Source: a virus (lineage: Duplodnaviria; Caudoviricetes). From it: a DNA stretch of 64,000 bases. Shown one piece after another: positions 8,553 through 17,039 of this stretch. Both the position numbers and the translations under genes were made by a program. How positions within the stretch are numbered: position 1 is the stretch's first letter; each line of letters opens with the position of its first letter. The notes beneath the pieces were generated by a model. The model was not told where the DNA came from. It was given only the letters and a program-made list of their open reading frames with translations, and did no database searches. The DNA lies in IMG/VR virus record IMGVR_UViG_3300010429_001883, positions 64,001 to 128,000 of that record. The stretch is one strand, 5' to 3'.

Positions 8553-9632
8553 ATGAAGCTTTTCTGCTATAATACCGATACGTCGGGTTGCTATTGGTAT
8601 CGTCTTTTTACGCCATTTACTAAACTAAAGGAAATAGCGAAGGACGATACCTTTAGCTTTGAGTTTAAACTTAAACACATTAGTGATTTAGAACAATATG
8701 ATATTGTTGTATTACAACGAGCAACAGATGCTTTGGGCATAGAAATTTTGGAAAAGTGCAAAGAACTTCACATTCCAGTAATTTATGAAGTTGATGATTC
8801 GTTGTTTAATATTGTCCAATCCAATCCTGCAGCCAAGTATTATGGCAGAGCAGACGTTAATTATTGTGCTAACTATTTATTGGAACATTGTGATTATTTA
8901 ACAACAAGTACTCAGAATTTGGCAAGATATTATTGTGCGTATTTTAATGAAAATAACATATATGTTTTGCCAAATTCTGTTTCACTTTCTAAGCCATTTA
9001 GTGATATTAAAATAAAAAATGATGAAAAGTTTAAGCCGGCGTTTCGCCTACTAATAGCTGGCAGTTCCTCTCATAAAGAAGATTGGGAATTTTTAGCAGC
9101 ATCATTTAGAGATCTTGTTTATGGAAGCCGCGGACAAATAGATGTTACCATATTTGGGTATGTCCCACCGGCATTTGAGGGAATACCCAATACCCGCGTT
9201 GTAAAACCAGTTCCTGTTACTAACTACTTTGACGTGTTATATGCGCTGAAATGTGATCTTATGTTAACTCCACTAGCAGATATTGATTTTAATACATATA
9301 AAAGCAATTTAAAGTTCGTAGAGGCCGGCGCGTTAAGCATGCCCCTAGTTGCTTCTAATGTTATTGCATATAATCAAGATGTAGTAGACGGAGTAAACGG
9401 CTGGTTACTCCCAAACAAGCCATATCACTGGACTAAATTACTTATGAAGTTGCTTAGAGATAAGAGCATAGTAAAAGAGGCCGGGAAGAAAGCAAGACAG
9501 GTTGTTGAACAAAAATACAACCTAGATAATACAGTAATGGATTGGTTTAATTGTTACAATAAAATTATGGAAGATTTTGATCAACCACAGAAGGCAGTTG
9601 TTCTAAAGGAGGAGGCAAATGATTCGGTTTGA
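8553..9632 (+). CDS. GT-B (GT4-like) glycosyltransferase
   Basis: SGCYWYRL, VLQR, IYEVDD, TTST, PLADIDFNTYKSNLKFVEAG, DGVNGWL. Confidence 0.85.
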   Translation: MKLFCYNTDTSGCYWYRLFTPFTKLKEIAKDDTFSFEFKLKHISDLEQYDIVVLQRATDALGIEILEKCKELHIPVIYEVDDSLFNIVQSNPAAKYYGRADVNYCANYLLEHCDYLTTSTQNLARYYCAYFNENNIYVLPNSVSLSKPFSDIKIKNDEKFKPAFRLLIAGSSSHKEDWEFLAASFRDLVYGSRGQIDVTIFGYVPPAFEGIPNTRVVKPVPVTNYFDVLYALKCDLMLTPLADIDFNTYKSNLKFVEAGALSMPLVASNVIAYNQDVVDGVNGWLLPNKPYHWTKLLMKLLRDKSIVKEAGKKARQVVEQKYNLDNTVMDWFNCYNKIMEDFDQPQKAVVLKEEANDSV

Positions 9633-12600
9633 AGATGTAAAAGATATTTCAATTGATGAATATTTTAAAGGGAATGCCTTTTCTGTAAACACGTTTAGGG
9701 ATAAATATGCGTACAAGAAACAAGATGGAGTTAAAGAAACTGTCGCTGAAGTCTTCTGGCGTGTTTGCACTAAAATAGCTGAGATGGAAGAAACAGAGGA
9801 GTTAAAGGAGTACTGGAGTAGAAGATGGTTTGATGAAATTTGGAACGATTGGTGGCGTCCTGGTGGGAGCATAATCGCTGGAACTGTTGATACTAAAAAG
9901 GTTAGCACAAGCAACTGTTTTAGCGCTGATACTGAGTTTATAACATCTACCGGAACCCGTGCGTTTTCAGAATACAGTGATGGTGACCATGTGGATGTTC
10001 TTACTTCAGACGGTGGGTTTAGGTCCGCTACTGTTAGATGTTTTGGTAAAGACAAGCTTTACAAAGTGAACTTGTCTAGGAATGGACACCATAAATATGT
10101 ATATGCAACAGGAAATCACAATTGGAGGGTTTCAGGCAAGGACCCTGTTATTCAACTTGTTGATACGTTATCTTTACTCCCAGGAGACAAACTGCCTTAT
10201 ATTAAGAGAAAGTGGATGCCTTCAGCTAATGGGTCTAGGTATTTCTGTCCGCTGGGTTTAATTCATGGTTTGGTTTTTGGTGACGGATATTATAATAAGA
10301 ATACAGATGTTTGTAATTTAGATCTTTGTGGTGATTCTGTTGGTTTGGTTGATCTATTCCAAGGCTTTGGATGGCACATTGGTAAGAGCAGTAATACTGA
10401 CAGGATACGTATCTACGGTTTGCCAAATTACATGAAAAGATTCCCGGATGTTGCTGTTAATGAAGAGTATTTGTTGGGATTTTTGATTGGTTGGTTTACT
10501 GCGGATGGTACGGTATCTAATCTTGGGATAGCGGAGATATCATCAGCAAGGCTAGAAAATATTTTTAAATTTAAACACTTAGGAGAGCGTGTTGGCATCT
10601 ATACATCAACACCCAGGCTCTTAAGGGATGAATCACCATTTACTGGAGATAAAACTCAGAAACTGTACTCAGCCTATATTATTAAAGATTGCCTATTTGA
10701 TTCGTTTTTTGTTAAAGAGTCGCACCGTTTAAAGTATAATACATATAAAACTAATGCCAAAAACATATCTAAACATCGATCTAATTGGAAAGTTGAATCA
10801 GTAGAAGAGACTTCTAGGTTTGAGGACGTGTGGTGTGTAGATGTTCCGGAAGTTCATGAATTTGTTTTATCTGATGGCGTTGGGACACACAACTGTACCA
10901 CGACTTCTGTCAATGGCGATAACTTAGAGGAGATATTTCAGACAGGGTTTAGATTGGCAAAAAACTGTGCATATAGGCAGGGCATTGGCATTGACCTTAG
11001 CCCTATCCGCCCAAGAGGAACCAAGATTAATAACTCCGCAGAAGTATCTATAGGTGCCGTACACTGGGGTAAGTTCTATGATAATATTGCTAATTATGTT
11101 GGTCAGGCCGGCAGAATACCAGCTATTTTATTGAGCCTAAAAGTTGATCACCCAGATATTGAAGAGTTTATTAAATCTAAATCAGATCTACACTCAGTTC
11201 AAAATGCTAACATATCGGTGCAAATAACCGATGCCTTTATGGAAGCTGTAGAAAAAGACAAAGATTGGTTACTAAGTTATGAAGTAAAAGATACTGGGGA
11301 GAAACTAGAAAAGACTGTTAAGGCAAGAGATTTAATGCATCTCATTGCTGAAAGGGCTTGCAACTTTGGTGAACCTGGCATTCAGTTGATAGATACAATA
11401 CAAAGAGATGTTAATACATCTTATGTAAAGGACCCAACAACTGGCAAGAATTTTGTTCCTATCTCTAGCAATGCTTGTTCTCTGGCAGGTGACACCGAAA
11501 TGCTTGGTACGTGGGGAGGGCAGACAGGATATAGAACAATTAAAGAACTTGCTGAAACCAATAACGCGATGCATGAGCTATATAATCCGGCAACAGGTTC
11601 ATTTCATTTGTGCCGCGTATATAAGTCTGGCGTGGCAGATAATCTTGTGGAGCTAACTATACAAGAGGTCGATGGGGATAGGAACTCTAAGATTAAATGT
11701 ACTGATAATCATGTATTTCTTTGTGATGACGGCGAACAAGTCCAGGCTCGAGACTTGTGCGGTCGTTTACTCCGTAGTTTTAGCTTAGTCGGGCAATTAC
11801 TTAATAGTTATAGTGGCACGGGGGGCGTCAAAGTAATTAATGTTGATTCTTTATCTGCCTCTGAGGATGTTTATGATTTTACCATGCCAGAGGAGGTTGC
11901 GCCTTGGCCGTGGGGCGTTGCTAATGGAGTATGGACACACAACTCTGAAAAACTAATGTATCCAGATTCTACTTGTGTGCTTGCTAGCATTAATGTTGGC
12001 AGGTTTTCAACTGCAAAGAGTAACAAAAATTTATATCAAGAGATATGTACTATTGGTGAAAGTATAACAAGATTTTTGGATAATGTAGTTACCTATGAGT
12101 TAAGACTTAATAAATCACCGATACCAGAACAAAAGTATGTAGTTGAGATGTTGCGGGAAATTGGCGTTGGTATCACTAATCTTCATGGCTGGCTTTTGAA
12201 TATGGGGCTATGTTATGATTCAGATGAAGCTAAGGAAGTTACTGAAAAATTTGTAAATAAGCTAGCATATGTTTGTTACAAAACTTCTATTGATTTGGGA
12301 AAGGAGAAGGGTAACTTCGGGGCGTTTAACGGAAAAGATTATAGAAAATCGCCGTATATAAAAAGATTAATGGGTGCTTTTCCTGACTTGAAGTTTAAGA
12401 CTATGCGAAATTCTATGGTTTTGTCTATTGCTCCGACAGGATCTTTATCTTTAACATTTGCTAAAACTCCAATATCTACTGGAATTGAACCTGCGCCCGG
12501 TTTCTATTATTGGAAAAGATCACGTACTTCGGGTTATTGGAGATGGTATTTTGTTGTTCCCACAGCTGTTCAGGAATATTTGAAAGATAAATATGGCTTA

Positions 12601-13500
12601 AGCTTTGAGTGGGAAACTATAGAAGATCCAGACGGTAAAATTGGACTTGCAACAATAGATTTGATTGAATCAAGGTTGGGTGATTTTAAAAATTTGTTTA
12701 AACCGGCGCATTTAATTGATCCACTAAAAAAGGTAGATTTAATGGCTGCTGTTGCTAAGTGGATTGATAGTTCTATTTCCACAACTTACAATATGCCTGA
12801 GACTGCAACTCCAGAGTTGGTTGAAGAAATTTATAAAAAAGCCTGGAAACTTGGTATTAAGTCTGTTGCTGTATATCGAGATAAATCTAGGCAGGGTGTA
12901 ATTGAATTTGATCCGCCGCCGATTGTTGAGAAAAGATTTGCTAGTAAACAAAAGCAAGAAAGGCCGGCCACAATTGAAAGACATTTTGCACCAAAAAGAC
13001 CAGCTGAATTGCCTTGTGATATATACAACGTAACTGTTAGTGGAACTAAGTGGGTGGTTATTGTTGGTCTTTTAGGCAAAGAGCCGTTTGAGGTTTTTGC
13101 TGGCAAGAGTGAAGATATAACTATTCCAAATAAATTTAAGAGTGGTATAATTAGGCGACGTGGTAAGGGAACATACGATTTAGTTATACCACTGGATGAC
13201 GATGAATTAGTATTTAGAGACATAGTTAATCTATTTAAGAACGATACATATACAGATACAACACGACTAATTAGTTTGTGTTTGCGAAGCGGTGCCCACA
13301 TGCAGTTTGTAACAGAACAGTTGTCTAAAGCCAGTAATTCTATAACTGATTTTTCTGCTGCCGTTGCTAGAGTATTAAAGAAGTACTCTGAGGAAATTGT
13401 TGGGCGTGAATTTAAATGTCCCAATTGTGGTGGAACTGAAGTAGACAATTCTTCTGGTTGTAATGTTTGTAAATCTTGTGGCTGGAGCCGATGTGAATAA
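9619..13500 (+). CDS. nrdJ: Class II (adenosylcobalamin-dependent) ribonucleotide reductase with two inteins
   Basis: SNC, GIGIDLSPIRPRG, NANISV, GEPG, NxCxE (split by intein), CVLASIN, SIAPTGS, GIEP, SISTTYN, GIKSVAVYR; C-terminal CPNCG...CKSCGWSRC; no nrdB in window. Confidence 0.9.
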   Translation: MIRFEDVKDISIDEYFKGNAFSVNTFRDKYAYKKQDGVKETVAEVFWRVCTKIAEMEETEELKEYWSRRWFDEIWNDWWRPGGSIIAGTVDTKKVSTSNCFSADTEFITSTGTRAFSEYSDGDHVDVLTSDGGFRSATVRCFGKDKLYKVNLSRNGHHKYVYATGNHNWRVSGKDPVIQLVDTLSLLPGDKLPYIKRKWMPSANGSRYFCPLGLIHGLVFGDGYYNKNTDVCNLDLCGDSVGLVDLFQGFGWHIGKSSNTDRIRIYGLPNYMKRFPDVAVNEEYLLGFLIGWFTADGTVSNLGIAEISSARLENIFKFKHLGERVGIYTSTPRLLRDESPFTGDKTQKLYSAYIIKDCLFDSFFVKESHRLKYNTYKTNAKNISKHRSNWKVESVEETSRFEDVWCVDVPEVHEFVLSDGVGTHNCTTTSVNGDNLEEIFQTGFRLAKNCAYRQGIGIDLSPIRPRGTKINNSAEVSIGAVHWGKFYDNIANYVGQAGRIPAILLSLKVDHPDIEEFIKSKSDLHSVQNANISVQITDAFMEAVEKDKDWLLSYEVKDTGEKLEKTVKARDLMHLIAERACNFGEPGIQLIDTIQRDVNTSYVKDPTTGKNFVPISSNACSLAGDTEMLGTWGGQTGYRTIKELAETNNAMHELYNPATGSFHLCRVYKSGVADNLVELTIQEVDGDRNSKIKCTDNHVFLCDDGEQVQARDLCGRLLRSFSLVGQLLNSYSGTGGVKVINVDSLSASEDVYDFTMPEEVAPWPWGVANGVWTHNSEKLMYPDSTCVLASINVGRFSTAKSNKNLYQEICTIGESITRFLDNVVTYELRLNKSPIPEQKYVVEMLREIGVGITNLHGWLLNMGLCYDSDEAKEVTEKFVNKLAYVCYKTSIDLGKEKGNFGAFNGKDYRKSPYIKRLMGAFPDLKFKTMRNSMVLSIAPTGSLSLTFAKTPISTGIEPAPGFYYWKRSRTSGYWRWYFVVPTAVQEYLKDKYGLSFEWETIEDPDGKIGLATIDLIESRLGDFKNLFKPAHLIDPLKKVDLMAAVAKWIDSSISTTYNMPETATPELVEEIYKKAWKLGIKSVAVYRDKSRQGVIEFDPPPIVEKRFASKQKQERPATIERHFAPKRPAELPCDIYNVTVSGTKWVVIVGLLGKEPFEVFAGKSEDITIPNKFKSGIIRRRGKGTYDLVIPLDDDELVFRDIVNLFKNDTYTDTTRLISLCLRSGAHMQFVTEQLSKASNSITDFSAAVARVLKKYSEEIVGREFKCPNCGGTEVDNSSGCNVCKSCGWSRCE
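9916..10893 (+). mobile_element. Intein with LAGLIDADG homing endonuclease (326 aa)
   Basis: CFSADT...ATGNH...GLVFGDG...GWFTADG...VWCVDV...GTHN followed by Cys extein. Confidence 0.92.
11479..11943 (+). mobile_element. Mini-intein (155 aa), Ser-initiated, no endonuclease
   Basis: SLAGDT...CTDNH...VYDF...ANGVWTHN followed by Ser; removal restores NAC-SE. Confidence 0.85.
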
Positions 13501-14475
13501 ATGTTAGTACCGGCCGATAACTTAGTTTTTAGTTATGACCAACAATCAGAATACAGAAATGTTGGTGAACACGCATTACTTTATACTTTGAAGTTAGTTA
13601 ATGGACCAACTGTAACGATTTGTAAGGGAAGCGGCCTTTGTGTTCCAGAAGGCGGAAAACTAGTTGTTAAAGACATAGTTGATATAGATTTAAATAAAAT
13701 TAAACATATTGCTGTAGACCACAGTGTACCACACAGCGGTAAAATAACAAGTAGAAGCAAGTTAGTTGGTTACCTTGTAGCCTGTGGTGAGTTGACGGCT
13801 GCTGGCGCTACTTTTACAATACCCAAAGAATACTACAATGAAGTTAATAGGAATCTAATTAATATCTTTAAGCACCTTGCTGTGACTGTTGAATATAGGC
13901 GAGCGAAGGAAAACGGTTCTTATAAAATACTAATTGATCCGTCAATTATTGATACGCTTATTTCTTTAAAGAAAGAAATTCTATGTTTAGCTAGTAATGA
14001 ATTTCCTGGACTTCTTAAAGGGATTATGGAAGTTGTTCCTAAGAAAGTTGATAAGAAAAAGAAGAGGCTAGAAATTTATCCTACTAGAGAAGAAACATTC
14101 AAATACTTGCCGGCATTGTTGCTTGGAATGGGTGTTTATCCTTTTGTGTATAGTGATAAGATTGTGATTTCTCACGCCGATTCTCAAGAAAATCTGGAAG
14201 TTCTTGGTAACATTACATTTGATAAGTACGGAGAATCCGAGTATCTATGGCCTATTCCTGTGCTAGTTGGGGATGAGGAGATTTATTTAAAGAAATCTGA
14301 ATTTATGCGGTTATTGTCAAAGCACGCCCCCAACAAACTTAATTTATTTAATAATTATTTCTTTTATAAGATATCCGATATTTCGTTCAGCGGGTATACA
14401 AATAACACATTAGAAGTAACAAATGAGAAAGTAATGTCAGATGGAATTACACTCTATAACATATCAAAAAGCTAA
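13501..14475 (+). CDS. Free-standing degenerate intein-like (Hint + LAGLIDADG) protein
   Basis: LVPADNLV; YTLKLVNGPTVTI; LVGYLVACG; LLLGMGV; KISDISFSG...DGITLYN; catalytic residues missing. Confidence 0.6.
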   Translation: MLVPADNLVFSYDQQSEYRNVGEHALLYTLKLVNGPTVTICKGSGLCVPEGGKLVVKDIVDIDLNKIKHIAVDHSVPHSGKITSRSKLVGYLVACGELTAAGATFTIPKEYYNEVNRNLINIFKHLAVTVEYRRAKENGSYKILIDPSIIDTLISLKKEILCLASNEFPGLLKGIMEVVPKKVDKKKKRLEIYPTREETFKYLPALLLGMGVYPFVYSDKIVISHADSQENLEVLGNITFDKYGESEYLWPIPVLVGDEEIYLKKSEFMRLLSKHAPNKLNLFNNYFFYKISDISFSGYTNNTLEVTNEKVMSDGITLYNISKS

Positions 14476-15337
14476 AGACCTGCTTGTAGCTGGTCATCTG
14501 GCCGGGACTTTAACTTATGATAAAAAGTCTATCAATGGACATCTATATAAAATTAGAAACAATTCTTTATTGTTAAATTTTAATCACCGCCGTGTGTTGG
14601 CTCTTAGTACTCTTGCTTCTAAAGCTGATTTTATTAAAGAAACAACTCTAGGCAGCTTAGTTGATCTTTTGGTGGAACCTATAACAGATGAAATGGCTGT
14701 AGCCAACATAAATTTGGCAGTGCTTCATTATGCATATATGGAGATAGGCACTTTTAAGAAAGACATAATATTTATTTTAAAGAACATTGACACAAGATTT
14801 TTACCTACACTCAAGGCCACTATAGATGCACTAGGTATTTATTCTGTTATAAATAGAACAGGCAATAGAACAATTGTTCGTGTTTTCAGAGAGGATTCCA
14901 AAGATATATTTTTTAATACCATGCAATCTAATATGTTCTTTCAATATAAGAATAACAAACACGCGGCTTTGGCATTTGATTTAAGTGATTACGATAAGGT
15001 ACTTAGGTATCTTAATGATGTTAAACATTCTTTTATTTTACACCATGTATATAATAAAACATTTTGGTCTTTTAAGTGTCTAGGTATTTCATTTAATTTA
15101 TTTCCTAAGTTAAATGTTGTTACGGACATGGAGGCCGAAAAGGCCCTTTTAACGGCACTGGTAAAGAATAGTCCCACGTGTGCTGTTGGTGTAATATCTG
15201 AGCCAATTATAAATCTTTGTAGAGAGTTTAATGTTAAAATAATATCATTTACACCAAGTGTAACTAGTGACTATATGATACCGTTTGAGTCTCATGAACT
15301 TGCAGTAAACAAGTTGAAGGAGTTTTTGTATGCGTAA
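14441..15337 (+). CDS. Degenerate LAGLIDADG-like protein
   Basis: FLPTLKATIDALGIYSVI...IVRVFREDSKDIFF resembles second LAGLIDADG domain; no acidic catalytic motif. Confidence 0.4.
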   Translation: MELHSITYQKAKDLLVAGHLAGTLTYDKKSINGHLYKIRNNSLLLNFNHRRVLALSTLASKADFIKETTLGSLVDLLVEPITDEMAVANINLAVLHYAYMEIGTFKKDIIFILKNIDTRFLPTLKATIDALGIYSVINRTGNRTIVRVFREDSKDIFFNTMQSNMFFQYKNNKHAALAFDLSDYDKVLRYLNDVKHSFILHHVYNKTFWSFKCLGISFNLFPKLNVVTDMEAEKALLTALVKNSPTCAVGVISEPIINLCREFNVKIISFTPSVTSDYMIPFESHELAVNKLKEFLYA

Positions 15338-15731
15338 AAAGAAATCTAAAGTAGATTGGCATAAGGTTGGTCGGAAGTCTAAGACAAAGGGCAATTCATA
15401 CGAACGGCTTATTGCTAAGATCTTTAGTGAGTATTTTAATGAAGAATTCATACGAACTCCTTCTAGTGGGGGTATGGATCTTAAAGGGGACATCTGCTTT
15501 AAAGAGTTTTATAAAAAGAGAATGCCGGTTCTTATTGATACTAAGGATCAAAAAACACTTCTTGGTGCTAGAATGAAGCAAGAACTTCTAAAGGCAAGAC
15601 AAGATGCAGATTATTCTAAAGTTGGGGATAGATACTTTTTGGTAGTACACGAACCTGGGACATCTAACCACTTTGCGATGTTGCCGTTAGATTTCCTTCT
15701 TGAACTACTTAAGAAATCTTCTATTTTTTGA
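15330..15731 (+). CDS. Hjc-like Holliday junction resolvase
   Basis: SKTKGNSYERLIA...RTPSSGG...GDI...IDTK. Confidence 0.75.
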   Translation: MRKKKSKVDWHKVGRKSKTKGNSYERLIAKIFSEYFNEEFIRTPSSGGMDLKGDICFKEFYKKRMPVLIDTKDQKTLLGARMKQELLKARQDADYSKVGDRYFLVVHEPGTSNHFAMLPLDFLLELLKKSSIF

Positions 15732-15732
15732 T

Positions 15733-15740
15733 TATACTAT
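15733..15740 (+). promoter_or_regulatory. YATACTAT motif, putative late promoter
   Basis: TATACTAT in 25-bp gap ahead of GGAGG and GTG 15757. Confidence 0.55.
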
Positions 15741-15756
15741 AACATGGAGGTAGAGT

Positions 15757-16308
15757 GTGAATCTAGAGTCAGAGGTAGGTCCAGTGGTTTCGACAGGTGG
15801 AATGAAGTATGTGGGGCCGTTTGAGTTATCAAAGGCTAACTCAACTGATCTTTGTTATGACTTATATGCTGCTAGTATTTATGCGATAGAGAGTTTACTC
15901 TCTGGGGCAATGACAACGAAAGAGAACCTAACATGTTTTGATTCAAAGGACTTAGAAACATCTAATTTTGAATTTCCATTTGTCCTTAAACCACACACCA
16001 GGGTTTGCATAGATACAGAAACTGTTATTGAATTTACAGAAGAAGTGGGTGCGATTATTGGCCCTAGAAGTGGTTTGGCTTTTATGTATGGGATTGATGT
16101 ACTGGCTGGCATTATTGACCCTGGGTATAGAAACTCAATTAGAGTTATTTTGATAAATCATGGGGAACAGCCATTTACAATTAATCGTGGTGATAGAATA
16201 GCCCAGCTAAGATTAGTTCCAGCTTATCCGTATGGACTAATAAAGGCTAAAGAAATTAATCTTAAAACGGATAGAGGTACTAAGGGTTTTGGTTCAAGTG
16301 GGGTTTAA
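15757..16308 (+). CDS. dut: Trimeric dUTPase
   Basis: YDL, PRSGLA, GIIDPGYR, GDRIAQL, RGTKGFGSSG. Confidence 0.93.
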   Translation: MNLESEVGPVVSTGGMKYVGPFELSKANSTDLCYDLYAASIYAIESLLSGAMTTKENLTCFDSKDLETSNFEFPFVLKPHTRVCIDTETVIEFTEEVGAIIGPRSGLAFMYGIDVLAGIIDPGYRNSIRVILINHGEQPFTINRGDRIAQLRLVPAYPYGLIKAKEINLKTDRGTKGFGSSGV

Positions 16309-17039
16309 TGTCTAAAGGTAAAAAGAGCGTCACATCTTTATTGAAGTATCATAAAGATCTGGAGGGCGGATTACGTACAGAATCCGCCCAAAAATATTTT
16401 AATAAGATGCTTGAAGAAGTTCAAGAGGACTATAGCAATATTGAATTGACCGATGCTGAAAAGGATCAATTACAGAAAGATCTTTTTTTGCTTAAGTATG
16501 GTCATGGTGTTTTTGAACCTAAGAAATGTGATAAAAACTGTACATGTAGTTTAAAAGAAATGGGCAAGGCGCCCGAAGGCAAGCCCTGCCCATTTGAAAT
16601 AGCATTTATAGGTGACCGTTTTAAATTCTGGGCTGAAACATTCCAGCAAAACGAAATAGATGTAGAAAACCCTCTTTATCAAACTTATATATCAGAATTG
16701 GCTTATTTAGATAATCTTATTCATCGTTGCGCGCAAGCACTTGCTACAACATACCAAACGCCCATAGTTGAGTCAGTTTCCGGAGTAACAAAATCAGGAG
16801 ACGTGTTAATAGAACTAATTGAAAATCCAGTAATAGGAGTTATGGATAAATTGGAAGCCAGAAAGAATAAACTCCTTAATGATTTAGTATTAACGCCACG
16901 AGAAAGCTATAAGCGTAAAGTAGCTTTAAAAATAAAAACACAAGATGACTATGCTTCTATCCAAGCAGCTAAACGTGTAATTGAGATTTCACCTGACCAT
17001 TTGATGGAAGCACCAGACCACTTGTCTGATGATGAATAG
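16308..17039 (+). CDS. Probable terminase small subunit
   Basis: ENPVIGVMDKLEARKNKLLNDLVLTPRES resembles P27-type TerS motif; Cys cluster; lies upstream of TerL. Confidence 0.5.
   Translation: MSKGKKSVTSLLKYHKDLEGGLRTESAQKYFNKMLEEVQEDYSNIELTDAEKDQLQKDLFLLKYGHGVFEPKKCDKNCTCSLKEMGKAPEGKPCPFEIAFIGDRFKFWAETFQQNEIDVENPLYQTYISELAYLDNLIHRCAQALATTYQTPIVESVSGVTKSGDVLIELIENPVIGVMDKLEARKNKLLNDLVLTPRESYKRKVALKIKTQDDYASIQAAKRVIEISPDHLMEAPDHLSDDE

Follow-up and report, generated by a model that had tools for sequence, protein, structure and literature searches.

Inteins are usually regarded as parasites, which either stay mobile or decay. The scaffolds of homing endonucleases can nevertheless serve other roles: WhiA, a bacterial regulator, binds DNA and contains a double LAGLIDADG domain that is inactive, and a domesticated endonuclease that Netter et al. 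are said to have described in 2021 in a phage satellite of V. cholerae reportedly reuses a homing-endonuclease scaffold for a non-homing role. Judging from the paper that cites it, the latter belongs to another nuclease family and is not derived from an intein. To our knowledge, HO/WHO of yeast is the only well-described case of an intein that survives as a gene of its own, and it is still a nuclease. The HO and WHO proteins of budding yeasts are extein-less, free-standing, intein-derived (Hint plus LAGLIDADG) and non-splicing, and the WHO genes form arrays, decayed copies included, right behind a conserved metabolic gene (Coughlan et al. 2020, PMC7282813). In the literature that we searched, we found no description of an extein-less, dead intein from a phage or a prokaryote. 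Here we analyse an ORF of a large, uncultured phage that appears to be of this kind, and whose closest analogues would be HO/WHO, the better parallel, and WhiA, for its inactive LAGLIDADG core only.

The stretch of DNA analysed (the window, 64,000 nucleotides) comprises bases 64001-128000 of a linear IMG/VR virus record of 148,472 bp, with a CheckV completeness of 78%. All the large genes of the window lie on the + strand. The features surrounding and including the ORF are the following:

9619..13500, + strand: nrdJ, the upstream neighbour (Pfam, intein boundaries, C-terminus aligned to the ends of homologues)
9916-10893, + strand: nrdJ intein 1, LAGLIDADG type, 326 aa (boundary analysis)
11476 (or 11479 if Ser is residue 1) to 11943, + strand: nrdJ intein 2, a mini-intein of ~155 aa (boundary analysis)
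13501..14475, + strand: putative stand-alone intein-derived gene, 324 aa plus TAA (ORF list, sequence, homologues)
14441..15337, + strand: ORF2, the downstream neighbour, 298 aa, overlapping the previous ORF by 35 nt in another frame
15330-15731, + strand: PDDEXK_15 / RusA-like resolvase gene, between ORF2 and the dUTPase gene

The nrdJ gene encodes a complete class II ribonucleotide reductase of 1293 aa, with the RNR barrel and a Cys-rich C-terminal tail (Pfam and homologue alignment), and after this tail NrdJ ends at the same point as its homologues. Among 50,697 phage records its closest relatives come from uncultured phages of megaphage size and from crAss-like phages, none of them above ~32% identity. 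Three inteins reside in the phage genome, two in nrdJ and one, outside the window, in PolA. Intein 2 of nrdJ sits at the thiyl-radical motif of the reductase, where NxCxE (N-A-C-S-E) is restored only with the Ser start (11479) and not with the preceding Cys, which implies a Ser1 / Ser+1 intein directly after the catalytic Cys. The intein of the PolA-type DNA polymerase (~134.3-135.3 kb of the record, 344 aa) begins with Cys1 and ends in Ser-Asn followed by Ser; its insert looks, by eye, like one of HNH type (HH..N..H motif) and not like a LAGLIDADG endonuclease. In the crAss-like phage cr108_1 (MT774385.1, 3973-7581), a 308-aa LAGLIDADG_2 gene separates the two pieces in which nrdJ is annotated. 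This is a further case of an RNR gene interrupted by a homing-endonuclease gene, whose product has no relation to the family of ORF 13501-14475. The second nrdJ piece of cr108_1 directly abuts the dUTPase gene, and the ORF, ORF2 and the PDDEXK gene together fill a nrdJ-dut gap that is absent from that phage. ORF2 itself may be a second degenerate LAGLIDADG protein in tandem, which we treat as a lead only: in the ESM Atlas's own model, its residues 6-177 resemble WhiA/LAGLIDADG clusters with a TM of ~0.42 (feature hits 0.77), while Pfam, PHROG, NCBIfam and hhalign gave no support for a LAGLIDADG identity. We found no kinship of ORF 13501-14475 to ORF2 or to the LAGLIDADG_2 gene of cr108_1.

ORF 13501-14475 shares frame 1 with nrdJ, and not one base separates its ATG from the nrdJ TAA. 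The ORF list and the sequence thus bear out the initial annotation, made from the letters alone, in which an uninterrupted frame of 324 codons began at the first base after the nrdJ stop and in the same frame. Since the longest antisense ORF across the 64-kb window reaches only 205 aa, 324 open codons at ~36% GC are not a chance occurrence. The GC content of the ORF (0.36) is like that of its flanks, and its composition is fully ameliorated. No + strand terminator was found to separate the ORF from nrdJ, and many other genes in the window abut just as tightly. Insertion in a host protein is absent: a TAA stands just before the ORF, which begins with an ATG of its own, and the Asn of block G is followed by no more than four residues (ISKS), which confirms that the gene stands alone without an extein.

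We collected relatives of the encoded protein by protein searches of 5.8 billion plus 1.8 billion sequences. A close cluster (P0001, P0002 and P0006-P0010) shares 91-100% identity with it, and two distant, stand-alone relatives, P0003 (330 aa, E 1.5e-9) and P0004 (325 aa, E 1.1e-7), share 19-25%; an exhaustive HMMER search returned only these two beyond the close relatives. The family is therefore tiny, with three lineages among 1.8 billion representative proteins. Each distant relative has a Met of its own, which precedes the equivalent of Cys1 by one to a few residues, and the two carry sub-threshold matches to LAGLIDADG_3, P0003 at the first motif (E 0.006) and P0004 at the second (E 0.029). 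The ORF itself matched nothing in Pfam (E<=1), PHROGs or NCBIfam, Hint and intein models included, and a scan of the genome with Pfam Intein_splicing detected nrdJ and PolA only. Likewise, no match was obtained by tblastn of the ORF against the 50,697 phage records, no locus by scanning IMG/VR and JGI metagenomes with the ORF protein, the family profile, P0003 and P0004, nothing relevant by phmmer of the ORF protein, P0003 and P0004 against the PDB, and no paralogue elsewhere in the 148-kb genome.

The regions that can be distinguished in the protein are:

13504..13530, + strand: block A-like N-terminus, LVPADNLVF, residues 2-10 (PSSM, marginal)
13531..13680, + strand: putative Hint N-lobe remnant, with the block B equivalent (~residues 17-29) and a hairpin (residues 30-60) (hhalign)
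13741..14220, + strand: double LAGLIDADG core, residues 81-240 (AF2, Foldseek, VIA, hhalign)
13762..13788, + strand: LAGLIDADG motif 1, LVGYLVACG, residues 88-96, catalytic position Cys95 (intein alignments)
14014..14040, + strand: LAGLIDADG motif 2, LKGIMEVVP, residues 172-180, catalytic position Val179, or Pro180 in the hhalign register (alignments)
14221..14433, + strand: conserved segment, residues 241-311, modelled as a hairpin and two helices (AF2, low pLDDT)
14434..14460, + strand: block G remnant, MSDGITLYN, residues 312-320, followed by ISKS and the stop (PSSM, hhalign)

An AF2 model computed from a 10-sequence alignment places two alpha-beta-beta-alpha-beta-beta-alpha units at residues ~72-240, and its structural matches agree on their identity. 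Block-mean pLDDT is mostly 60-83 over residues 81-220 and below 50 for residues 1-80 and 285-324; a model from the single sequence was uninformative (pLDDT 36). Foldseek against the PDB retrieved I-DmoI (E 4.7e-7), the TliVMA intein, WhiA, I-Tsp061I, PI-SceI and PI-PfuI. In an exhaustive VIA search the top ten chains were all LAGLIDADG proteins with Z 10.8-12.6 (I-DmoI, the VMA, PI-PfuI and PI-SceI inteins, and WhiA), followed by further LAGLIDADG endonucleases at Z 6-8 and, from rank 17 on, by chains with Z of ~5 or less. A LAGLIDADG fold, for which comparison with PI-SceI and PI-PfuI had been proposed as a check, is thus predicted, with both inteins among the top structure matches.

LAGLIDADG-1, LAGLIDADG-2 and the LLLGMGV stretch had been placed correctly in the initial annotation, all three being in register with real inteins. 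Motif 1 aligns with ...GYivAEG of MCM-a inteins and ...GYLIADG of the TliVMA intein, and the glycines G90, G96, G170 and G174 within the motifs are conserved in the family alignment. Both canonical metal-binding acids, at the last-but-one position of the motifs, are replaced. At motif 1 the position is occupied by Cys95 here, by Gly in P0003 and by Met in P0004, with an acid in no member of the family. At motif 2, P0003 has Val (Asp in the alternative register) and P0004 has Cys (Ser in the alternative register). When motif 2 is set by eye beside the canonical LAGLIDADG 9-mer, Glu177 comes out at its position 6. The core is basic, with a pI of 9.1 (8.8 in P0003 and 9.8 in P0004), as would suit a LAGLIDADG saddle that binds nucleic acid.

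The relationship to inteins was analysed with profiles built from 98 inteins at four insertion sites, extracted from 80 haloarchaeal MCM loci. The family profile matches that of the haloarchaeal MCM-a inteins with an hhalign E of 1.4e-9 (Prob 96%), and an archaeal MCM intein with an E of 2.9e-6 over family residues 32-242. The only longer protein found at E<=10 was an archaeal MCM that bears inteins, and the best PDB sequence match of the family profile was the TliVMA intein (E 0.1), with both motifs in register. Structure neighbours in BFVD are mostly intein-bearing viral terminases, RNRs, polymerases and helicases; those in the ESM Atlas, a lead only, carry LAGLIDADG_3, Hom_end, Hom_end_hint or Intein_splicing. 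A recent copy of a resident intein was considered and rejected, as neither BLASTP nor hhalign gave a significant match to nrdJ inteins 1 and 2 or to the PolA intein.

The similarity extends beyond the endonuclease core. Family residues 1-85 alone align by hhalign with endonuclease-free mini-inteins at block B and the next hairpin (E 8.2e-4), just before the conserved endonuclease insertion point of inteins, and with 81 intein N-termini at E 5.6e-5. Their score of 25.4 compares with 10.7 +/- 2.2 for a column-shuffle null (z ~6.7), and none of 60 shuffles reached it. The Hint ends of the family escaped HMMs made from only five inteins, and their detection required deeper profiles (98 MCM inteins). 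In the early intein training sets nrdJ intein 2 was started at Cys620 and not at Ser621, a shift of one residue in one of five sequences (later one of ~80-100). At the other end, the alignment of the last 45 residues with real inteins is confined to the last 8 positions of the latter, with a score above all 60 shuffles. In a PSSM, MSDGITLYN scores above 99.5% to 100% of null windows (P <6e-5 to 0.005), and the spacing from Gly315 to Asn320 is canonical for block G. Residues 241-311, in which P253, R270, F288 and Y289 are invariant, had no significant match to intein profiles.

According to the initial annotation all intein blocks were present in order, which is too strong a statement: the LAGLIDADG motifs and block G are there, but the position given for block B was wrong, block A is no more than marginal, no block F was detected, and the Hint N-lobe is ~50 residues short. 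The stretch YTLKLVNGPTVTICKGSGL, taken for block B, corresponds in the profile alignment to the hairpin after it, and the true equivalent lies at ~residues 17-29. For block A (given as MLVPADNLV without Cys1), Leu2 does occupy the position of Cys1, and the match to a PSSM from 81 real inteins is only marginal (P 0.04-0.06 for the window protein, best match at offset 1-2; P 0.03-0.04 for P0004; residue 2 in both). Of the proposed F/G region, block G, followed by Ile321, stands at the exact end of the protein, and block F could not be shown. The splicing residues are lost: Cys1 is replaced by Leu2, the TxxH of block B by G22..A25, the penultimate His by Tyr319 and the +1 nucleophile by Ile321, and terminal Asn320 is the sole one kept. 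The equivalents of the block B T and H are conserved in neither P0003 nor P0004. Together with the replacement of both LAGLIDADG acids, these alignments agree with the description of the protein as catalytically dead. Since only ~16 residues precede the block B equivalent (~70 in real inteins) and ~100 residues of a Hint module remain in total, we regard the module as a shortened remnant, which is consistent with the poor model of the termini; the Hint similarity itself covers ~40 N-terminal and 8 C-terminal profile columns, in termini with pLDDT below 50. What is demonstrably intact is the ORF, and not the Hint fold.

Compared with embedded LAGLIDADG inteins (best with those of haloarchaeal MCM-a, and also with TliVMA/PhoVMA, PI-PfuI and PI-SceI), the protein shows the same order of block A, block B, hairpin, two LAGLIDADG units and block G. 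These inteins, however, lie in frame inside a host protein, keep Cys/Ser1, TxxH and HN plus nucleophile, and have a Hint module of ~130-150 residues versus ~100 here. The PhoVMA intein also has a degenerate, inactive endonuclease, like the core of our protein (PMC8966425). Like HO/WHO, the protein is extein-less, intein-like and encoded by its own gene. HO/WHO, however, are eukaryotic and have a C-terminal CxxC zinc-finger domain, whereas the phage protein has no zinc-finger Pfam domain and only four scattered Cys with no CxxC pair. HO/WHO also lack motif G, which is kept here, and are active endonucleases, unlike a protein without both catalytic acids. WHO genes leave duplicated 3' fragments of their target behind. 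Although the ORF adjoins nrdJ, no such footprint was found downstream of that gene: nrdJ exteins and the nrdJ 3' end searched against 13501-16400 by tblastn and blastn gave nothing above chance. WhiA (PDB 3hyi, 8dy9) resembles the modelled core as a monomeric double LAGLIDADG fold without catalytic acids (Z 11.8-12.1), but it has a C-terminal HTH domain and no Hint remnants. The likeness is structural only, as the ORF has no match to WhiA in Pfam (E<=1).

Several observations on the close and distant relatives suggest purifying selection. Close homologues differ by 31 replacements, which occur in all three regions of the protein and have a mean BLOSUM62 of +1.26, versus -0.31 expected for random nonsynonymous changes (P<5e-5), and the frame is free of stops and frameshifts in seven close relatives. 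The gene has diverged by 7.7% from the P0001 lineage, versus 5.3% for the adjacent PDDEXK gene (~1.5 times); P0001 and the PDDEXK gene compared are apparently on the same 13,897-bp contig. P0003 and P0004 share the stand-alone state, the length of 325-330 aa, the own Met and a motif 1 without acid. P0002, on a 15.3-kb JGI contig, is an otherwise 100% identical variant with an in-frame deletion of 13 residues (~115-127) in a helix of the LAGLIDADG core, which argues against strict essentiality. As a separate observation, the P0008 intein-like gene is 93% and the P0016 PDDEXK gene 99% identical to those of the window, each being listed on a 2,398-bp ENA contig; if this is the same contig, it suggests a recombination boundary between the two genes.

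How, then, did such a gene arise, and why is it there? It could be a decaying relic of a selfish intein-derived homing gene that once homed beside nrdJ, now inactive and functionless and simply not yet broken, a history that we regard as possible though of low probability. It would account for the location just behind an RNR gene, a classic homing target, in a phage that carries three inteins, for the possible second LAGLIDADG relic (ORF2) next to it, for the natural variant P0002 with its 13-residue deletion, and for the direct contact of nrdJ and dut in a distant crAss-like phage; WHO clusters, which adjoin FBA1, are the same kind of array downstream of a target (PMC7282813). It accords poorly with a motif 1 that is dead in lineages only 19-25% identical whose ORFs are still full-length, with the strongly conservative replacements, with a divergence only ~1.5 times that of a neighbouring enzyme gene, with the missing duplicate of the nrdJ 3' end downstream and with the fully ameliorated composition. 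The low-confidence termini, together with fold searches in which I-DmoI and WhiA score as well as inteins and Pfam/NCBIfam Hint and intein models that do not match, would also suit an inactive LAGLIDADG protein without any intein in its past, descended from a free-standing lineage like that of I-DmoI or WhiA and extended at both termini by unrelated sequence. We consider this origin unlikely, because residues 1-85 alone match endonuclease-free mini-inteins (E 8e-4, z ~6.7), because the very end of the protein matches block G, with Gly and Asn canonically spaced, and because the sole longer protein at E<=10 is the intein-bearing MCM.

Two further proposals would leave the protein with an enzymatic or a processing role. 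A nuclease or nickase still active through a non-canonical active site, and encoded by a mobile homing gene that targets nrdJ alleles without it, might use the acid that motif 2 keeps at its position 6 (Glu177, Asp, Glu), the Asp of P0003 at the motif-2 catalytic position in the hhalign register or, in the window clade, Glu97 right after motif 1; moreover, most phage homing endonuclease genes are free-standing and clustered near essential genes (PMC10448857). Such activity appears improbable when no member of the family has the motif-1 catalytic acid (Cys, Gly, Met), when the window clade has Val179/Pro180 at motif 2 with position 179 varying among close relatives (V179I), and when loss of these aspartates inactivated the endonuclease of the PhoVMA intein (PMC8966425). 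Far more remote is a C-terminal extension of NrdJ made by readthrough of its TAA, acting as a Hedgehog-like autoprocessing or regulatory tail. The shared frame and missing spacer invite this idea, and readthrough had been raised in the initial annotation, but it finds no support: NrdJ ends after its Cys-rich tail like its homologues, many gene junctions in the window are equally tight, the gene calls of all relatives, the distant ones included, start with a Met of their own at the equivalent position, and the junction offers no nucleophile. A role as a group I intron maturase was also discarded, as no Rfam family occurs anywhere in the window.

On balance, and with moderate confidence, we favour the reading that ORF 13501-14475 is a free-standing, extein-less descendant of a LAGLIDADG intein, which neither splices nor cuts and is kept for a non-catalytic job, most likely the binding of nucleic acid. 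The gene would be co-transcribed with nrdJ and translated by TAA-ATG stop-start coupling, and its product would have lost both splicing and double-strand cutting. Selection appears to have kept the gene without its splicing and cutting residues, and it is therefore probably a DNA-binding protein now. The likeliest role would be sequence-specific binding of DNA (or RNA), without cleavage, through the basic beta-saddle of the LAGLIDADG core, as a regulator or as a factor that occupies a site. In the initial annotation the protein had been tentatively cast as a regulator, an RNR partner or a homing inhibitor. Counting against this explanation are the unmodelled Hint ends, too short for a full Hint fold, the tiny size of the family, the P0002 deletion, the marginal block A and the block F that was not found; the PhoVMA intein, whose degenerate endonuclease has lost DNA binding altogether (PMC8966425), is a caution against the binding role in particular. 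Domestication, as had been proposed, is nevertheless a fair reading, because the gene is intact and extein-less, has the marks of intein ancestry, has lost its catalytic and splicing residues and shows signs of purifying selection; the parallel drawn with WhiA stands for the inactive LAGLIDADG core alone.

A broader and more speculative proposal, to which we attach little probability, is that in phages orphaned inteins have become non-catalytic DNA-binding factors on repeated occasions, and that this one acts on the homing/intein system, for example by occupying the homing site and blocking the endonucleases of competitors in co-infection, or regulates the nucleotide-metabolism operon. In contrast with HO/WHO, the gene described here belongs to a phage and has lost the residues for both splicing and cutting, yet it has been kept across deep divergence. 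If our favoured explanation is true, it would be an example, from a virus of prokaryotes, of the domestication of an intein into a non-enzymatic protein.
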